Assembly: GCA_002305165.1 (NCBI GenBank)
Contig: DBQI01000065.1
Coordinates: 16,794 to 80,793, forward strand
Origin: Armatimonadetes bacterium UBA1398
Lineage (GTDB): Bacteria > Armatimonadota > Zipacnadia > UBA1398
Length of the DNA stretch: 64,000 nucleotides
Reading direction: 5' to 3'
The notes below the pieces were generated by a model that saw only the letters and a program-made list of their open reading frames with translations, was not told the origin of the DNA and made no database searches. Position numbers and translations under genes: made by a program. Positions 17,178 through 35,403 of the stretch are shown here, one piece after another; within the stretch, counting starts at the first letter, position 1; each line of letters opens with the position of its first letter.

Positions 17178-19298
17178 CTATGGGAGGCCGAGGTCACGCA
17201 GAGGCTTCAGCGCCGCCTCGGCCCGCTCGTCTTGCCCCAGCGAGCGGTAACACTCCGCCAAACGCAGTCGTTCTTCCTTCTCCGCGGGAGGAACACGGAA
17301 GGCGAACGCCTGCTCGAAAGCCTCGATGGCGCCTCGGGCGTCGCCCGCCTCGTAGAGGGCGTTCCCGAGGGCTTTGTTCAGAGGTCCCAGCACCGTGATG
17401 TCCCAGACGCGCCGCCGGTGTCGTTCGAGGAGCCGCGCTGCCGACTCGGGCTGGCCCAGCGCGCGGCGGATTCGCGACTCCTGGATCACAAGCCTGTCGT
17501 GATGCGGCGCGATCTCCCGACCGAGAGTGATGAGCCCGAAGGCCCCCCACGGATCGCCATAGAGGAGCCGCTCGTCGCTCAGTTCCAGCAGTGGCGCCAT
17601 CGCCATCTCGCGGACGCCACGGTCCGTTGGGTGCTCCGCCATGCACCACCGCGCCCAAGCGAGACACTCCCGGACCAGCGCCTCATATGTGGCGGGGTCC
17701 TCCTCGGCCAGATTCACGGGATGGGCGGTGACTTGGCTGACCCAGCCTCGTGTCTCAAGGTGCGCCCCGGCCGCCTCGTACCAACGCGCCCCCGCGGAGA
17801 ACACCCCGCCAGCCCGCACTGCCAGGCTAGCCAGGTGGCGCTCGCGCTCCAGGAAGACCTGCTGGAAGGACCCCTCGACCTCTTCCTGGCTGGCGCCCAT
17901 CCACTCCTGCACGTAGCGGTACGAGTTGTCATCCAGTTCGGGGGCGAGCCAGACCCGTTGCTCGGTGCTCTGCTCCACATTGCGGCAGTAGTAGAGCGGG
18001 AAGATCCGATGGTCGCCGACGACATGCTCATCACCGCAGATGAGATCCGTTGCGGGATTGCCTAACGCGGCGATAGCCCGGTCGGCGTAGTAAGCGGCCA
18101 TCCACTCGGTGCTCCGATCCACCTCCCTGTAAGTGCGCGGCGTCTCGGCGAGCAGCCAGGCCAGAAGGACTGACAGGATGATCGCCACCGCCTTCCTCCC
18201 CCGCTCCTGGGCATCACCGAGGAGGAAGGCGATCCCGTGCAGGCCGGCCCCCGCCAGCCCAACTATCCCGAGGTAGGCGGGGATGAAGAACACCTCCTGG
18301 TCCATCGCCGTGTAGTTCCAGAAGAAGCCGAGGGAGGCCACCGCTAGCCACGCGAAAGGCGCCAGGCGCGTCCCCGCCGGACGCCACCCCACGACGTACC
18401 CGCCGAGGGCAAGCGCCCAGACGGGAAGCGACAGCTCCGCTGCTAGGCGGTGCCAGTCTCCCCTGAGCATCGTCCCCCAGAGAGGCGGCTGGGCGCCCCA
18501 CATGAACCGGCGGTAGGGGCCTGCTGAGATGGTGAACTTGAAGTCAGCCCAGGTCTTCGGCTTCGCCCAGCAGTACGCGGCTCCCTGATCCAGGTGGGGC
18601 CACGCCCCAGCCCGCAGCGGGAGATGCAGCCATACCAACTGAGACAGCAGGTACCCGCCCACGAAGGCTCCCAGCACGCTCCATCTCAGCCATAGGCGTC
18701 GAGGCTGTCCGATGAACAACGGCAGCAGCCCCAGTTGAAGGAGCGCGTTGAAGGGCCGGTGGGTGACGGCGAGCCCCAGGAGCAGTCCCAGCCCCAGCGC
18801 CCACCACCAGCGCACCGCTTGGCCCGCTTCCAGCCCTCTCCGCATCCGCAGCGCCCCCGCCAGCCCTGCCGTCAGGAGGGCTATGTCGAGGGTGTACACC
18901 TCGGTCAGGGTGGCCTGGTCCCAGACTACAGGGGTCAGGCAGAAGGCCCACGTGAGGAGCAGGGCGGTGACGTCGTGGCGGACCAGCTCGCGTAGTGAGA
19001 TGAACAGGAATAGGCCCGCGAAGCCCAGCCAGATGGCTGAGAGCAGGTTGGCGCTCGCCGCCAGGGAGGCGAGGGGCACGACCTGGCTCCAGCCCCAGGT
19101 CAGGAGCACCCACAATGGGTAGCCGGGCGCATGGGCGATGCCTCGCTGCCCCACGGCGGACAGCAGTTCGCCCGCGTCCCCGAAGGTGATCGATGGCGCC
19201 ACGGTCCAGACCACTACTGCCAGCACACCGAGGGACGAGAGAGCGCCACATACCGGGCAGCTTACGGCGGCGAGGTTAGTGGTCAGGGGACGCTGCAT
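17178..19298 (-). CDS. DUF2723-like multi-pass membrane protein (putative GT-C/PMT-like glycosyltransferase) with C-terminal TPR-like repeats
   Basis: 706 aa; N-terminal about 400 aa of hydrophobic helices with FGDAGELL motif; soluble C-terminal helical repeat region. Confidence 0.55.
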   Translation of the reverse strand: MQRPLTTNLAAVSCPVCGALSSLGVLAVVVWTVAPSITFGDAGELLSAVGQRGIAHAPGYPLWVLLTWGWSQVVPLASLAASANLLSAIWLGFAGLFLFISLRELVRHDVTALLLTWAFCLTPVVWDQATLTEVYTLDIALLTAGLAGALRMRRGLEAGQAVRWWWALGLGLLLGLAVTHRPFNALLQLGLLPLFIGQPRRLWLRWSVLGAFVGGYLLSQLVWLHLPLRAGAWPHLDQGAAYCWAKPKTWADFKFTISAGPYRRFMWGAQPPLWGTMLRGDWHRLAAELSLPVWALALGGYVVGWRPAGTRLAPFAWLAVASLGFFWNYTAMDQEVFFIPAYLGIVGLAGAGLHGIAFLLGDAQERGRKAVAIILSVLLAWLLAETPRTYREVDRSTEWMAAYYADRAIAALGNPATDLICGDEHVVGDHRIFPLYYCRNVEQSTEQRVWLAPELDDNSYRYVQEWMGASQEEVEGSFQQVFLERERHLASLAVRAGGVFSAGARWYEAAGAHLETRGWVSQVTAHPVNLAEEDPATYEALVRECLAWARWCMAEHPTDRGVREMAMAPLLELSDERLLYGDPWGAFGLITLGREIAPHHDRLVIQESRIRRALGQPESAARLLERHRRRVWDITVLGPLNKALGNALYEAGDARGAIEAFEQAFAFRVPPAEKEERLRLAECYRSLGQDERAEAALKPLRDLGLP

Positions 19299-27252: not shown

Positions 27253-27381
27253 CTGGTCGCGGCTCGAGGGGAGGATTCCCCACGGACCGATACAAGATGC
27301 CGATAGCGGGTGGACCCGTCCTCTGGCGCGGGTGCCGTCCTGGTTCGCTTCGTCTGGCGAAGACTTGGGGCGTCTGATCCA

Positions 27382-29253
27382 ATGAGTGAAGAGCGCGAAG
27401 TGCTCAAACGGGTAGCGGATGGGCGCAGCGACCCGGGCATCCTGGCCCGAGAGGCTGGCCGTGCGGACGAGGACTCCCTGTGCATCCGGGAGTTCGACGG
27501 AGACCGAGGCGCCCTCTATGCGGTCGCCGACGGGCTGAGCGGCAGGAACGCCGGCAGCGTCGCTAGCGCCCAGGCGGTTGGCCTGCTCGAGGAGGCTTTG
27601 GAGGCGTACGCCCGCCACGGCGAGGCGCTCCTCCAGCAGCTCGGTCCGGCCCTCCCCGACCTCAGGGCCTACATCGACTACGTCGCCGTGCGGATCGACG
27701 CCCAGTTGCGCGCCAACGCCGAGGCGAATCCCAGCCTGGCGGGGATGGCGACGAGCCTTACGGCGGCCTACGTGGATGGCCGGGACCTCCTCATCGCCCA
27801 TGTCGGCGACTCCCGCGCCTACCGCGCCCGCGCCACGGAGTCTGGGCTGCAGCAGCTCACCATCGACGATGCCCCCGTGGATGACGAGGAGTTCGATCCC
27901 CCTCCCTCCAAGGCCCTGGGCGACGCCGACGAGCAGCCACTGCGCATCGATCAGTACCGCGCGGAGGATGGAGACATCCTCCTGCTTTGCACTGACGGGC
28001 TGTGGCGCGAGGTCGACTGTGCGCTCATGGAACGCATCCTGAAGGGGTCCCCGCGCCCCTCGATGGCCGTCGAGAGGCTCATCCGCGCGGGGAACCAGGC
28101 TGGCGGACGTGGCAACATGGCCGCCGTCGTCGTTCACATCGGCGAGGTTGACCTGACCGACGACGAGGCCCTGGATTCGGCCTTCCCCGTCGGCGGCGCC
28201 GCCCCCAAGCAGGCTCCCGTGGAGCCCCCCGCAGAGACGCAACCAGAGCCCGAGCCCGAACCGCCGGTGGAGGAGCCTGCCGCCGAGGCCCCCGAGAACA
28301 CGCCCCCCCCGGAGGAGCCGGCCATTGAGGAGCCGGCCCCCGAGGCTACCGAGGAGGCCCCGAGGGAGGAGCCGGGACCGGTCATACCGGGTCCGCCAGC
28401 AGGTGGCTATGCGGCCGTCCCCGAGGTCGTGGGCCGGGCAACCTACCCGCGCCCCGCGGAGATACCCGACGACGCCCTGCGTCCCCGGCGCGAGACGGCG
28501 GCGGGCGAGGCTAGGTCCAGCGACTCGGCCCTGTTCCTCCTGGGGCTTGTGTCGGGCATCGCCTTCATGCTCGTCATCGGCGGCATTTTCTGGGGCCTTA
28601 AGGCGTGGGCCGGGAAGCCCACCGAAGCGCCGCGAGCCACTGCCACGAGCACCGATCACGTCGACTATGAGGAGATTGTGACCCATCCCGTCAGCTTCTG
28701 GGCCAAGCCTCTGGGGCCGGGGGGGCGGCCGTGCATGATCCTCACCAAGAGTCTCCACGAGGAGACGGGCGAGGAGTCGTGGGAGGAACTGCCTCGCCTT
28801 CAGGGCAATGAGAGCGGCCCATCGGGCTCTGTCAGCCTCTTCCGCCAGGGCGACGCGCTTCACATGTTCCTGGATGTGCAGTTCATCGCGTCCGAGGCCG
28901 GCCTGCCACGCGACTGCCTGCTCTCCCTCAAGGTCATGCCCGACGAGGGCAACCGGACCCAGACCGTCATCACCGCGGGCCCTGACGCCGGCGAGCAGCG
29001 GGACGGGCACATCGAGGTCATCAGCATCCGCCCCGGGAGCGTGAGCCTGGTACCACAGGATCCCGACGAGCGGCTGATCGCGGGCGGCAAGGCCGAGGCG
29101 ACGATGGGCGGCCAAGTCAACGCGTCGGGCTATTACGTGCAGCACTTCGACAAGGTGCCCTTGGGCACGTACCTCGCCAAGAAGGGCAGCAGCGAGCGGA
29201 TCGTCGAGATCACGGCCGCCAAGCGACGGGTGACAGTCACCTTCACCGAGTGA
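27382..29253 (+). CDS. membrane-anchored PP2C-family Ser/Thr protein phosphatase with extracytoplasmic C-terminal domain
   Basis: Start at ATG 27382 (internal to track ORF 27310..29253). PP2C motifs LYAVADGLSG, GMATSLTAAYV, AHVGDSRAY, LLLCTDGLW; Pro/Glu-rich linker; TM helix LFLLGLVSGIAFMLVIGGIFWGL. Confidence 0.75.
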   Translation: MSEEREVLKRVADGRSDPGILAREAGRADEDSLCIREFDGDRGALYAVADGLSGRNAGSVASAQAVGLLEEALEAYARHGEALLQQLGPALPDLRAYIDYVAVRIDAQLRANAEANPSLAGMATSLTAAYVDGRDLLIAHVGDSRAYRARATESGLQQLTIDDAPVDDEEFDPPPSKALGDADEQPLRIDQYRAEDGDILLLCTDGLWREVDCALMERILKGSPRPSMAVERLIRAGNQAGGRGNMAAVVVHIGEVDLTDDEALDSAFPVGGAAPKQAPVEPPAETQPEPEPEPPVEEPAAEAPENTPPPEEPAIEEPAPEATEEAPREEPGPVIPGPPAGGYAAVPEVVGRATYPRPAEIPDDALRPRRETAAGEARSSDSALFLLGLVSGIAFMLVIGGIFWGLKAWAGKPTEAPRATATSTDHVDYEEIVTHPVSFWAKPLGPGGRPCMILTKSLHEETGEESWEELPRLQGNESGPSGSVSLFRQGDALHMFLDVQFIASEAGLPRDCLLSLKVMPDEGNRTQTVITAGPDAGEQRDGHIEVISIRPGSVSLVPQDPDERLIAGGKAEATMGGQVNASGYYVQHFDKVPLGTYLAKKGSSERIVEITAAKRRVTVTFTE

Positions 29254-31020: not shown

Positions 31021-31644
31021 TTAGCTGGCCGGAGTGCCCGCCCAGAGCGCGCCACGCTGGAGCATGGACGCGAAGACCTCGTGCCGGCAGGCCTTGGCGT
31101 CGTGGCCCAGGGCGAGGTAGAAGACGCGGCCCTGGCCCCAGCTCTTCGTCCAGGCGACGGGCATGGCCCCGCCCTTCCAGAGGGCGGAGGCGACGACGTG
31201 GACGCGCGGGTCGTAGTCGGTGATGTACTGCTCATCCTCGACCACGAACTCCTCGAGGCCCTTGGTGATGGGGTGCTCGGGGTCGGTCACGCTGACCTGG
31301 TACTGGCGGTAGGCCGGGTGGGTGATGAAGTAGCCGCCGACCATGGCTTGGTACTCCGGGCAGCCACGGAAGGAGTCGGCGGCCGAGTGGATGCCCACAT
31401 AGCCCTTGCCCCGGGCGAGCCACTCCAGGAGGCCGTTCTTCTGGGCCGTGGAGATCTCGCCGACGGTGTAGTAGAAGACGATCAGCTCGTAGGGGTCCAA
31501 GCCCGATTCGAGGACAGTGAGGTCTTCGTTGACCCGGGTGATGTCGAAGGCGCTGTCGGCACGGAGGATCTTCTCGATCTCGGCGCCACAGCCTTTCCAG
31601 TCGTGTATCTCTCCGCCGGTGAATAGAAGGGTCTTGATGGCCAC
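31021..31644 (-). CDS. ThuA-like (trehalose-utilisation, class I glutamine amidotransferase-like) protein
   Basis: Start at GTG 31644 (CTGGAGG RBS) inside track ORF 31021..31851, giving VAIKTLLFTGGEIHDWKGCG; upstream 69 codons are Arg-rich and unlikely coding. Confidence 0.55.
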   Translation of the reverse strand: MAIKTLLFTGGEIHDWKGCGAEIEKILRADSAFDITRVNEDLTVLESGLDPYELIVFYYTVGEISTAQKNGLLEWLARGKGYVGIHSAADSFRGCPEYQAMVGGYFITHPAYRQYQVSVTDPEHPITKGLEEFVVEDEQYITDYDPRVHVVASALWKGGAMPVAWTKSWGQGRVFYLALGHDAKACRHEVFASMLQRGALWAGTPAS

Positions 31645-31831
31645 GGTGGGCGCCTCCAGGGGGTGAGTTGGGAGTGACGCCGACGGCCGCGCACCCCGTC
31701 GACACAGGAGCCTTCGTCGGGGAGCGCCCCGCCACCTGCCGCGGATTGGCCGCCCACGGCCTCTCCTCGTACACAGAGAAGGCGCGCTCATGGGAGCGCG
31801 CCCCACGGCCCTGGGCGGTTGCCCTGCGAGG

Positions 31832-31993
31832 TTACGGAGCGGCGACAACACCGGTCGTGTTGTCGTATATCCAGTCCTCGTTCGTCACCCGCACTCCGCA
31901 CCCGAACCCAGCGGGGGGGGGGGCGAGCATGGCAATGACGACGATCATGATCTCGATGAGCGTGACCCCCTGGTGCCTCGGCGCTGCTCTCAC
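31832..31993 (-). CDS. short prepilin-like peptide (N-terminal methylation-motif helix only)
   Basis: Hand translation: GTG 31993 with GGAGGG RBS, 53 codons, QGVTLIEIMIVVIAMLAPPPAGFGCG...; below the ORF-track length cutoff; contains a C11 tract. Confidence 0.35.
   Translation of the reverse strand: MRAAPRHQGVTLIEIMIVVIAMLAPPPAGFGCGVRVTNEDWIYDNTTGVVAAP
31913..31923. repeat. G11 homopolymer (C11 on coding strand) inside the short pilin-like ORF
   Basis: Eleven consecutive G read directly in the plus strand; encodes PPP in the minus-strand ORF. Confidence 0.8.
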
Positions 31994-32031
31994 TGCTGTC
32001 CCTCCCTCACCAGAGGGCAGCGTATCCCGGG

Positions 32032-32451
32032 CTACGGCGCTGTGTGCTTCGACCAGAGAGCATCAGTGCGGTCAGCGTCTACAACGTGGTTCTCGCAGTA
32101 GGCTTCTCCCGCATGATCGCTCGTATCATCGTCCTCGATCACGTAGGTGGCTTGGCACCAGGGACACAGCGGCGTCTTGGTGCGGCCGAGGGAGGGCTTC
32201 TTGTGGTTGTCAGCAGTGTCAGTATCGGCAGCTATCACATCGTCGACGGACGTCGGCCACTTCCCCGTGTCGTTGTGGTACTTGACCGCGGCATACGTGA
32301 TCGCGGACGTATCAGTGACGTAGCGCGTGTGCTTCGCCCGGTCGCTCGCGTTACGGACGGCGAGGCCGACGATCAGGGCCAGAATCGCGACGATCAGGAC
32401 TATGATCATCATCTCAATGAGCGTGAAGCCTCTGCGATTGCTCTTCCTCAC
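32032..32451 (-). CDS. type IV pilin-like / pseudopilin (prepilin-type N-terminal cleavage/methylation domain)
   Basis: GTG start with GAGGAGG RBS; N-terminus RKSNRRGFTLIEMMIIVLIVAILALI; C-terminal domain with Cys pair. Confidence 0.7.
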   Translation of the reverse strand: MRKSNRRGFTLIEMMIIVLIVAILALIVGLAVRNASDRAKHTRYVTDTSAITYAAVKYHNDTGKWPTSVDDVIAADTDTADNHKKPSLGRTKTPLCPWCQATYVIEDDDTSDHAGEAYCENHVVDADRTDALWSKHTAP

Positions 32452-32621
32452 TTCCGGTACCTCCTCTTTCCCTCCCTACTCCCCATACGGCGTGTCAACT
32501 CTGTTCCCTACTCTCTATCGGTCCCCGGCTTCGAGGGTCCTATGCCACACCCCGGCATCGATCTCTCACGGCAAACGTATGAGTACGGTTCCTACGCGAT
32601 TTCTGTTTCGGGCGCTCGGCG

Positions 32622-33727: not shown

Positions 33728-34210
33728 GTGGACAGAGAGCCCCCCTCGGATCTTACCCTCCGCTGCGCGAGCCCGGAGGACACGCGTCGCTTGGCCGCTC
33801 GCCTCGCACCCGCCCTGGCGGGGGGCGAGTGGCTGCTCCTGCGGGGCCCCCTCGGGGCGGGCAAGACGACCTTCGTGCGCGGCCTCGCCGCCGCCCTAGG
33901 TTGGGAGGGCACGGTGCGCAGCCCCACTTTCAACCTCGTGGCCGCCTACCCCACCCGCCCGCGCCTCATCCATGTGGACCTCTACCGCCTGGAGCAGCCC
34001 GCGGCCGTAGAGGACCTGGGCATCGACGACCTTGCCGGAGAGGAACCCGCCGTCGTGGCCGTGGAGTGGCCGGATCTGCTCACCGACCGCCCCTCGCGAG
34101 AGCCGGTATTGCGGATTGACATCGAGCCTTCTGGCGATCTGCGGCTCATCACCCTTCACCCACTCACCCCGCCCGCCGCCCGGCTCCTCGAGGCGGTGAG
34201 AGAGGGGTGA
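33728..34210 (+). CDS. tsaE: tRNA threonylcarbamoyladenosine biosynthesis ATPase TsaE
   Basis: P-loop LLRGPLGAGKTTFVRGLA followed by SPTFNLV and HVDLYRL; start tentatively at GTG 33728; stop overlaps tsaB start (GTGA). Confidence 0.7.
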   Translation: MDREPPSDLTLRCASPEDTRRLAARLAPALAGGEWLLLRGPLGAGKTTFVRGLAAALGWEGTVRSPTFNLVAAYPTRPRLIHVDLYRLEQPAAVEDLGIDDLAGEEPAVVAVEWPDLLTDRPSREPVLRIDIEPSGDLRLITLHPLTPPAARLLEAVREG

Positions 34211-35402
34211 TCCTGGCCCTGAGCACCACGACGGAGGTCGCGTCCATCGCCCTGGCAACGGGCGACCGGATCGTGCAGACGCGGTTCGAGAGCCGCCGGG
34301 AGCTGGCTCGGACCCTCATGTCACGGATCGACCGCCTCTGCCTCGACGCCGGCGTTGGCCCGGGCAGCCTTACGGCCATCGCCGTGGACCGCGGCCCGGG
34401 GTCCTTCACGGGGGCGCGGATCGGTGTCGCCACCGCGCGCGCCCTCGCCTCGGCCCTCGGCCTGGCCATCCGGACCGAGACCTCGCTGGCGCTCCTGTGC
34501 CGGGCCGCGCGCCACACCGCGCCCAGTTGCGGCCCCCACCGGCTGGTGCTCGCGGCCGTGGAATCCAAGGCGGACGAGATGTTCGTCATGCCCTTCAGCT
34601 GGCTGGGGGCCGAGGCGTCCGCGCCCATCCCCCTCGCCTTCGAGGACGCGCCCGAGTTCGCGCGGCGACACGCGGGCGCCCTGCTCGTCGGCGCGCCGTG
34701 GCGCAACCCGGCCGTTCCCCGGTCGCTCACCAACTGGAGCGAGCCCGCGGGCCGGGACTGGGACTACCCCGATGCCGCCACCCTTGCCACCAGCGCGACG
34801 GGGGAGCTGCCGCCGGAGCGCGTGGAGCCCCTCTACGTTCGGGTCTCCCAGCCCCAGGCCGCCGAGGGCCAGGGGCCCCGCCGCTGGCGTCCGGGCGACG
34901 TGTTCGTCCGGCCCCTGCGCGGGGACGACGTGGAGGATATCGTCGCCATGGAGCGGCAGTGCTTCATCACCCCGTGGCCCCGGGGCGACCTGGTGGCCGA
35001 TATCCGCCGGCGCAGCGGGTCGTACTACATCATCGCCGAGGACTCGGACGGCTCGCCGGTGGGCTATGCCGTGGTCTGGTTCGTGTTCGACCGGGGGCAT
35101 GTCGCCTCCGTCGCAGTGCTCCCCGAGTGGCGGCGGAAGGGCGTGGCGAAGCGGCTCATGCTCGAGCTCTTCGCCGCCTGCGTCGCACGGGGGATGCGAA
35201 CGGTCAGCCTCGAGTACCGCGCCTCGAACCGCGCTGCCGCGCAGCTCTATGAGGAGCTGGGGTTCCAGGTGGACGGATACCGGCACAACTACTATACGGA
35301 CACGGGCGAGGACGCCGTGTCGATGATCCTGCCCGACCTCCTCGCGGCCGACGTGCGGCAGCGCCTCCGGAGGATCCGCATCACCCTGGAGGCGGGCCAC
35401 TG

Positions 35403-35403
<1 letters not shown>
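34207..35403 (+). CDS. tsaB: TsaB (YeaZ)-like domain fused to RimI-type GNAT N-acetyltransferase
   Basis: N-terminal MILALSTTTEVASIALA...GPGSFTGARIGVA (TsaB); C-terminal GNAT core with acetyl-CoA loop RRKGVAKRLM and YRASNRAAAQLYEELGF (RimI-like). Confidence 0.75.

Follow-up and report, generated by a model that had tools for sequence, protein, structure and literature searches.

The short open reading frame (ORF) at 31832..31993 on the minus strand of the window (the whole stretch of 64,000 nucleotides analyzed here, from Armatimonadetes bacterium UBA1398) is best explained as the pseudogene of pilin2, the second member of a conserved pilin1-pilin2 gene pair, and its 11-nt C tract appears to have arisen inside this remnant and to be neutrally polymorphic rather than to form a contingency locus; we put the probability of this reading at about 0.88. 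The ORF is homologous to both ends of intact pilin2 genes found at the syntenic position in relatives and differs from them by deletions, the orthologues lack the tract, and three tract alleles, each with its own linked SNPs, occur within the species. As far as the sequences can tell, every testable hallmark of a pseudogene seems to be present.

The Short ORF and Its Pilin-Type N-Terminus

The features of the locus are as follows.

31832..31993, minus strand: putative pilin2 pseudogene, remnant of a second pilin gene (ORF and translation, profile, protein and DNA alignments)
32000..32008, minus strand: Shine-Dalgarno-like GAGGGAGGG, read in the sequence, 6 nt 5' of the GTG
32032..32451, minus strand: pilin1, an intact GspG-like prepilin of 139 aa (PF07963, 33.6 bits; TIGR01710, 45.1 bits, below its cutoff)
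31021..31644, minus strand: ThuA-domain gene that ends the locus and serves as synteny anchor (PF06283, 147.8 bits)

The ORF has a GTG start and 53 codons and begins 38 nt past the stop of the 139-codon pilin1 gene; its product, MRAAPRHQGVTLIEIMIVVIAMLAPPPAGFGCGVRVTNEDWIYDNTTGVVAAP, is split at the cleavage site into MRAAPRHQG and VTLIEIMIVVIAMLAPPPAGFGCGVRVTNEDWIYDNTTGVVAAP. The preliminary description of this DNA had noted a 53-codon ORF with its own ribosome-binding site (RBS) just downstream of the prepilin gene, and both the start signals and the position agree with it. GAGGGAGGG shows no difference among all strains of the species and is a carry-over from the ancestral pilin2. The pilin-type N-terminal helix that had been proposed is also recognized by NCBIfam TIGR02532 (17.8 bits, above the cutoff of 16.3), and Pfam PF07963 gives 19.2 bits (E 8.9e-4), slightly below its gathering score of 21.2.

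The N-terminus carries a short basic leader with Gly at -1 and Glu at +5 (MRAAPRHQG/VTLIE, the slash marking the cleavage site), but position +1 is Val and not Phe or Met. The uninterrupted hydrophobic alpha1-N helix of about 20 residues is missing, a 2-codon deletion leaving 15 hydrophobic residues followed by PPP, and so is the C-terminal globular domain (alpha1-C plus beta-sheet, T2SSG-like in orthologues); PF08334 matches the pilin2 of one relative, L015 (26.5 bits), and not the short ORF. The ORF therefore fails two of the three defining pilin features, namely the intact alpha1-N helix and the globular domain. Since pilin1 and the short ORF have the only two pilin-type N-termini in the window, the short ORF fills the pilin2 slot. 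A word-indexed homology search for a wider family of the 53-aa ORF returned only the ORF itself and a 52-aa allele from the same species.

Intact Second Pilin Genes in Related Lineages

Elsewhere, homologues of pilin1 (54-60% identity) stand first in a gene pair of the same kind and led us to syntenic loci; in the collection searched, 51 blocks contain the identical pilin1 protein. In six related lineages, pilin1 is directly followed by an intact second pilin gene, 111-119 codons long. The gene order in L014, L015, L016, and L017 is TsaE (divergent), a 295-aa protein, pilin1, and pilin2, and their intact pilin2 products have 116-118 aa and match PF07963 at 34.7 to 39.2 bits, that of L015 also matching PF08334 as given above. 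The order in L042 is the same as in the window (294-aa protein, pilin1, pilin2, ThuA, and CoA-binding protein), with an intact pilin2 of 119 aa and a 184-nt spacer to ThuA, and the pilin1-pilin2 pair of L041 lies in another gene context. Comparison with orthologous loci, which the preliminary description had recommended, thus recovers an intact pilin2 at the same position in relatives, and the homology of the short ORF to an intact gene at a syntenic position is what a pseudogene should display.

The ThuA of the window is 94% identical to that of L014. Searches of genome contigs gave no matches with the 296-aa neighbor protein and, with ThuA, no same-species genome at this locus; the best ThuA match in genome contigs, in "Armatimonadia bacterium Bin_177" (86% identity), lies on a 3-kb contig without upstream sequence. 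No pilin genes were found near the more distant Armatimonadota ThuA loci (L031, L035-L037, and L039).

In L014 (6013..8358) and L015 (6071..8137) the gene after the pilin pair encodes a membrane protein of 781 aa that combines a TMEM260-like protein O-mannosyltransferase domain (PF11028, 54 bits) with TPR repeats at its C-terminus; in L014, ThuA comes next. This arrangement suggests pilin glycosylation. The TMEM260-like gene is absent at the pilin locus in the window and in L042. A window paralogue, 36% identical, lies 12.5 kb away (17190..19283, minus strand); we considered it as a relocated orthologue and rejected this, because true orthologues of more distant lineages share 52% identity. 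Loss of this gene and the pilin2 deletion as a single event was likewise rejected, because L042 lacks the TMEM260-like gene and yet has an intact pilin2. The conserved pilin1-pilin2 pair of these uncultured, Armatimonadota-like bacteria, in some lineages followed by the gene for this putative O-mannosyltransferase, may interest researchers of pilin glycosylation.

L016 (JGI 3300037832) is 99.4% identical to L015 until 84 nt past the pilin2 stop and diverges from position 1414 on, where a DDE_3 transposase region indicates an IS element directly 3' of pilin2. The IS is another sign that the spot downstream of pilin2 is prone to rearrangement.

Anatomy of the Remnant

A profile built from four intact pilin2 orthologues matches the short ORF in two pieces, at positions 2-24 and 98-116 of 117; with a whole-sequence E of 1.2e-6, the ORF ranks behind pilin1 only when all 1385 six-frame segments of the window are scored. 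Profile positions of about 25-97 are missing, so that just the last 18-19 residues of the C-terminal part remain, and the protein alignment agrees: the short ORF consists of both pilin2 ends without the middle, with the stop codon at the homologous position. The DNA alignments resolve it into these parts.

31904..31993, minus strand: segment A, with leader, Gly, Val+1, Glu+5, and shortened helix, in the ancestral frame (TIGR02532 and DNA alignment with the pilin2 of L014, L015, L017, and L042)
31884..31902, minus strand: segment B, 19 nt, ancestral codons for A-V-R-N-A-G-D (16 of 19 nt identical to L014)
31884..31888, minus strand: junction of the large internal deletion, approximate (DNA alignments)
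31832..31888, minus strand: segment C, the last 18 codons and stop, VTNEDWIYDNTTGVVAAP followed by the stop (tblastn over 31888..31835, E 0.005; profile and alignment)

The helix in segment A has a 6-nt (2-codon) deletion relative to the orthologues. Just upstream of segment B, after GGGTTCG, 1 nt is deleted, which shifts segment B out of the ancestral frame, so that it now reads G-C-G-V-R where the orthologues have A-V-R-N-A-G. The large deletion has removed about 185 nt relative to L014 pilin2, between GGTGAC and GTCAC/GTGAC, a short direct repeat. Because the GTGAC at the junction matches both ancestral sites (5' GGTGAC and 3' GTCAC/GTGAC), we infer the exact breakpoint from this microhomology, and its placement is accordingly approximate. 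The 1-nt and 185-nt losses add to a multiple of three, which brings the last 18 codons back into the ancestral frame; segment C aligns with the C-terminus of L042 pilin2, VTGNEWVYDNTTGIVTAP, including its stop. The net shortening of the short ORF is 192 nt relative to L014 and 201 nt relative to L042. A pilin gene remnant, one of the two readings offered in the preliminary description, accords well with these intact syntenic orthologues and with an internally deleted, partly frame-scrambled copy in the window, disabled by deletions of about 185, 6, and 1 nt and, in one allele (C7, below), by a further frameshift.

Signs of Relaxed Selection on the ORF

Of 20 N-terminal positions that do not vary among ten intact pilin1 and pilin2 sequences, 9 are changed in the short ORF; for example, Val replaces Phe at +1, Pro replaces a Leu, and a Leu is lost. 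Within the species it has 0 synonymous and 3 nonsynonymous SNPs, as compared with 67 synonymous and 39 nonsynonymous in the flanking genes; by our own arithmetic the chance of three nonsynonymous changes in a row is about 0.05, which is weak alone given such small counts. The ORF also has a non-triplet indel polymorphism, and the one flanking-gene indel inspected, in a PP2C-domain gene, is in frame. Small as the SNP counts are, these patterns point to relaxed selection on the short ORF.

The inspected indel lies in the PP2C-domain gene at 27310..29253 (plus strand), at about 28320..28360, in a linker of low complexity rich in Pro and Glu (with PEPEPEPPVEEPAAEAPE and PPPEEPAIEEPAPEATEE), and gives products of 616, 619, and 623 aa.

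The C Tract and Its Alleles

The tract lies in the 5' half of the ORF.

31913..31923, minus strand: C11 run (G11 on the plus strand), replacing GCTCTCATCGTC or GCCCTCGTCGTC of the orthologues

The 11-nt homopolymer described previously is, as assembled, exactly 11 C in codons 24-27 of the short ORF. It is the longest homopolymer in the 64 kb, the runners-up having 8 nt. At 68% GC, 0.59 G/C runs of at least 11 nt are expected under an i.i.d. model and 0.27 under a first-order Markov model; the runs observed in the window number 140, 23, 5, and 2 at lengths of 5, 6, 7, and 8 nt and drop about five-fold per added base. Given this steep fall-off, the 11-nt run is an empirical outlier, though not rare under the i.i.d. 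model. Its length within an ORF is that of a slippage-prone repeat. In simulated slippage, C10 gives 35 aa and C12 gives 68 aa with a nonhomologous tail, so the earlier statement that neither +1 nor -1 slippage extends the frame is essentially right in that no product is pilin-sized; over tract lengths of 7-15 the products range from 34 to 69 aa, and none contains a pilin domain. The C9 and C12 products (67 and 68 aa) were sought among 5.8 billion protein clusters, and none was found.

We gathered same-species loci from anaerobic-digester and bioreactor assemblies by exact-protein look-ups and a scan for the DNA pattern; the pattern scan of JGI metagenomes for the tract contributed just two further C7 alleles. 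Three tract alleles are found in the species.

C11: window, GCA_040364295.1, SRR31061296, SRR31066035; product 53 aa
C7: GCA_040767745.1, ERZ27268617, ERR1981057/ERZ941565, ERR1981049/ERZ941560, SRR31066034, SRR31933947, Ga0209723, UOUL01000080; product 34 aa, other frame
CCCCCCTC: SRR12762293, SRR12762290; product 52 aa, in the C11 frame and of ancestral length

The commonest allele, C7 (9 loci in at least 7 samples, with three sub-haplotypes), is frameshifted; segments A and C share a frame in the C11 and CCCCCCTC alleles only, and a full pilin is encoded by none of the three. C11 is invariably paired with G at 31894 and A at 31866. The preliminary description had suggested looking for heterogeneity in tract length and had named a uniform length as evidence to the contrary; lengths do differ between strains (C11, C7, and CCCCCCTC), a variation to be expected of a slippage-prone run in nonfunctional DNA. 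Tract length thus varies and shifts the frame, but apparently as a few fixed alleles of single origin: the recurrent, haplotype-independent length variation of a contingency locus is not seen among these three alleles. Toggled expression, as proposed earlier, is not supported, since repeated switching would not leave every allele with a set of linked SNPs of its own.

One C11 contig (L010, from SRR31061296) is a mosaic, window-type over 32021..31866 and L003-type from 31252 on; its flanks differ by 1 SNP from L003 and by 48 from the window. A recurrent origin of C11, which its C7-type flank might have indicated, was rejected, because L010 is window-type over 32021..31866 and the haplotype switches downstream. 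L010 is either a true recombinant or a chimeric metagenome contig, and it cautions against strain-level inference from these assemblies.

The data consist entirely of metagenome assemblies, which may miscall homopolymer lengths and merge strains, and long homopolymers are error-prone on several platforms. The 11-nt run might then be an error of sequencing or assembly that hides one of the shorter alleles, and the mosaic L010 lends this idea some weight. We nevertheless regard it as the least credible of the alternatives weighed here: the same C11 occurs in four assemblies from at least three data sets (the window, GCA_040364295.1, SRR31061296, and SRR31066035), always with the private linked SNPs, and the neighboring run SRR31066034 shows C7 on a different haplotype. 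An artefact of one assembly, the possibility raised in the preliminary description, does not fit a run that recurs in three others.

Origin of the Tract

The orthologues have GCTCTCATCGTC (L014, L017, and L042) or GCCCTCGTCGTC (L015) at the tract site and no homopolymer, so the tract is not kept in orthologues as that of a contingency locus should be. The corresponding sequences in the species are GCCCCCCTCGCT in L012, of the same length as the orthologues, GCCCCCCCGCT in C7, and GCCCCCCCCCCCGCT in C11. In the L012 allele, which is still of ancestral length, a T interrupts the run (C6-T-C). Position 31894 is A in the orthologues as well as in L012 and the C7 strains (CGGAAC), which makes the C11 haplotype the derived one.

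The probable course of events begins in the ancestor of the species, an uncultured bacterium of anaerobic digesters. There a deletion of about 185 nt, which slippage between short GTGAC-like repeats would best explain, took out the middle of pilin2 and with it nearly the whole globular domain. Further lesions comprise the 6-nt helix deletion, the 1-nt deletion that puts 19 bases out of frame, and many substitutions at invariant N-terminal positions. The C run would then have formed by substitution within the already dead gene (GCC CTC xTC GTC to GCC CCC CTC GCT). An L012-type allele may have given rise to C7 by losing the T, and C11 may have arisen by slippage, either from T to C plus a 3-nt expansion or from C7 plus 4 nt. 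We infer the order of these events, the slippage mechanism, and the lack of function of the short ORF from the sequences compared here. The remnant itself is best seen as ordinary gene decay.

Some features seem at odds with a pseudogene and would favor a functional mini-pilin, 44 aa long once the prepilin peptidase has cleaved it, with poly-C slippage toggling its expression or its C-terminus. The RBS, the GTG start codon, the Gly-ending leader, and Glu+5 are preserved intact; strains differ in tract length and with it in frame (34, 52, or 53 aa); and in two alleles of three (C11 and CCCCCCTC) the N-terminal remnant reads in frame into the 18 ancestral C-terminal residues, so that a product of 52-53 aa is possible. 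If C7 is ancestral to C11, the +4 expansion even restored the frame. The chance expectation is one in three for each of these two coincidences of frame. Against a mini-pilin, the product lacks a globular domain at every tract length, the frameshifted C7 is the commonest allele and is stable across three sub-haplotypes, the linked SNPs point to a single origin of each allele, and the orthologues have no tract. Moreover, the helix is 2 residues shorter and then runs into PPP, 9 of 20 invariant positions are altered, all three SNPs are nonsynonymous, and part of the ORF is read outside the ancestral frame. We consider a functional mini-pilin quite improbable. A more specific version, in which the predicted mini-pilin (N-terminal helix plus C-terminal 18 residues, 44 mature residues) would cap, poison, or prime the pilin1 fiber and the poly-C run would switch between the 53-aa and 34-aa products, is equally a long shot. 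If that version held, the locus would be a newborn contingency locus in a nonpathogen of anaerobic digesters. The phase-variable minor pilin suggested in the preliminary description is thus not supported: no tract length restores a pilin, orthologues lack the tract, and the commonest allele is frameshifted.

Comparison with Known Systems

Translational phase variation via a poly-G tract is known for Neisseria pilC (Jonsson et al. 1991, summarized in PMC5320596), where one of the frames encodes the complete functional protein and almost every strain has a different tract length, from G9 to G15 in six gonococcal genomes (PMC5320596). The short ORF resembles pilC in having an 11-nt G/C homopolymer in the 5' half of a pilus-related ORF, with a strain-dependent length that shifts the frame. 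Unlike pilC, it has no tract length that yields a protein of functional size, i.e., no ON state; the gene body is deleted, and its tract has only three single-origin alleles and is not conserved in orthologues.

The closest counterparts are the GspG-like/type IV prepilins (PF07963 N_methyl, TIGR02532, and PF08334 T2SSG) encoded by pilin2 of L014, L015, L017, L041, and L042. The short ORF shares with them the position directly after pilin1, a homologous leader, the cleavage-site Gly, Glu+5, the start of the helix, the last 18 residues, and the stop codon, whereas it lacks about 62-67 codons, essentially the whole globular domain, and has a helix 2 residues shorter followed by Pro-Pro-Pro, Val in place of Phe+1, and 19 nt out of the ancestral frame.

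The silent pilS cassettes of Neisseria lack a promoter and the conserved N-terminal region and keep the variable C-terminal domain as donor sequence. Like pilS, the short ORF is a truncated pilin copy, probably not expressed to judge from its sequence, beside an expressed pilin gene; in the reverse of pilS, it keeps the N-terminus and the RBS and lacks the variable domain. It therefore cannot donate variable sequence and is not a pilS-like cassette. Naturally short pilins, such as Geobacter PilA-N (61 aa mature) and the Flp pilins, belong to conserved families whose helix, of about 50 residues, is intact. The short ORF is similar in the small predicted mature size (44 aa), mainly N-terminal helix, but is limited to one species, frameshifted in most strains, and truncated and proline-interrupted in its helix.

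We suggest that the ORF be labeled a pilin pseudogene or remnant, and not a "hypothetical protein" or a phase-variable pilin; the case carries little weight beyond annotation. More generally, a long homopolymer beside a surface-structure gene counts as evidence for phase variation only if some repeat length restores an intact gene and the tract itself is conserved, and dead genes can newly acquire slippage-prone tracts that then vary neutrally between strains.

Spacer Hairpin and Surroundings of the Locus

The spacer between the remnant and ThuA contains one further element that differs between strains.

31762..31810, minus strand: 49-nt spacer segment with a perfect hairpin, 9-bp stem and 4-nt loop (strain comparison and fold)

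The hairpin, at 31781..31802, reads GGCGCGCTC CCAT GAGCGCGCC and is followed by TTCTCTGTGT; the fold of 31745..31835 has -51.4 kcal/mol (z -3.7), and no further copies of the hairpin occur within the window. C7 and C11 strains have the 49-nt segment, and L012/L013 strains do not. A direct repeat, GGCCGTGGG, borders it on both sides, so the L012/L013 strains probably lost it through a deletion between the two copies. Termination of the pilin1 transcript is a possible role of the hairpin. Consensus scans for promoters and terminators in this region came out empty and did not call the hairpin, and an Rfam search gave no match.

The region might alternatively be noncoding and kept as RNA, either as the 3' tail of the pilin1 transcript down to the spacer hairpin or as a leader affecting ThuA, with the C run bound by a protein or Rho. 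Its place between pilin1 and a strong hairpin, upstream of ThuA, would suit such a role, as would the lack of a sigma-70-like promoter between pilin1 and the short ORF in the consensus scan. This idea is very doubtful, somewhat more so than a mini-pilin, because the Rfam and terminator scans were negative, no specific RNA function is indicated, L012/L013 strains lack the 49 nt with the hairpin, and L042, a relative with the same gene order, lacks the tract. Decay of pilin2 remains our preferred account of the region.

Two other observations concern the pilin1 side of the locus. Between tsaE and tsaD, at 34207..35403 (plus strand), lies a gene for a 398-aa protein with TsaB-like (PF00814) and GNAT acetyltransferase (RimI-like) domains, which indicates that tsaB and rimI are fused in this lineage and in the relatives L014, L015, and L017. 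The intergenic region 5' of pilin1 (32452..32621) has the top SNP density of the locus, with 13 variable columns in 170 nt (76 per kb) as compared with 5-27 per kb in the neighboring genes, which suggests that the putative pilin1 promoter or leader region is diverging fast.
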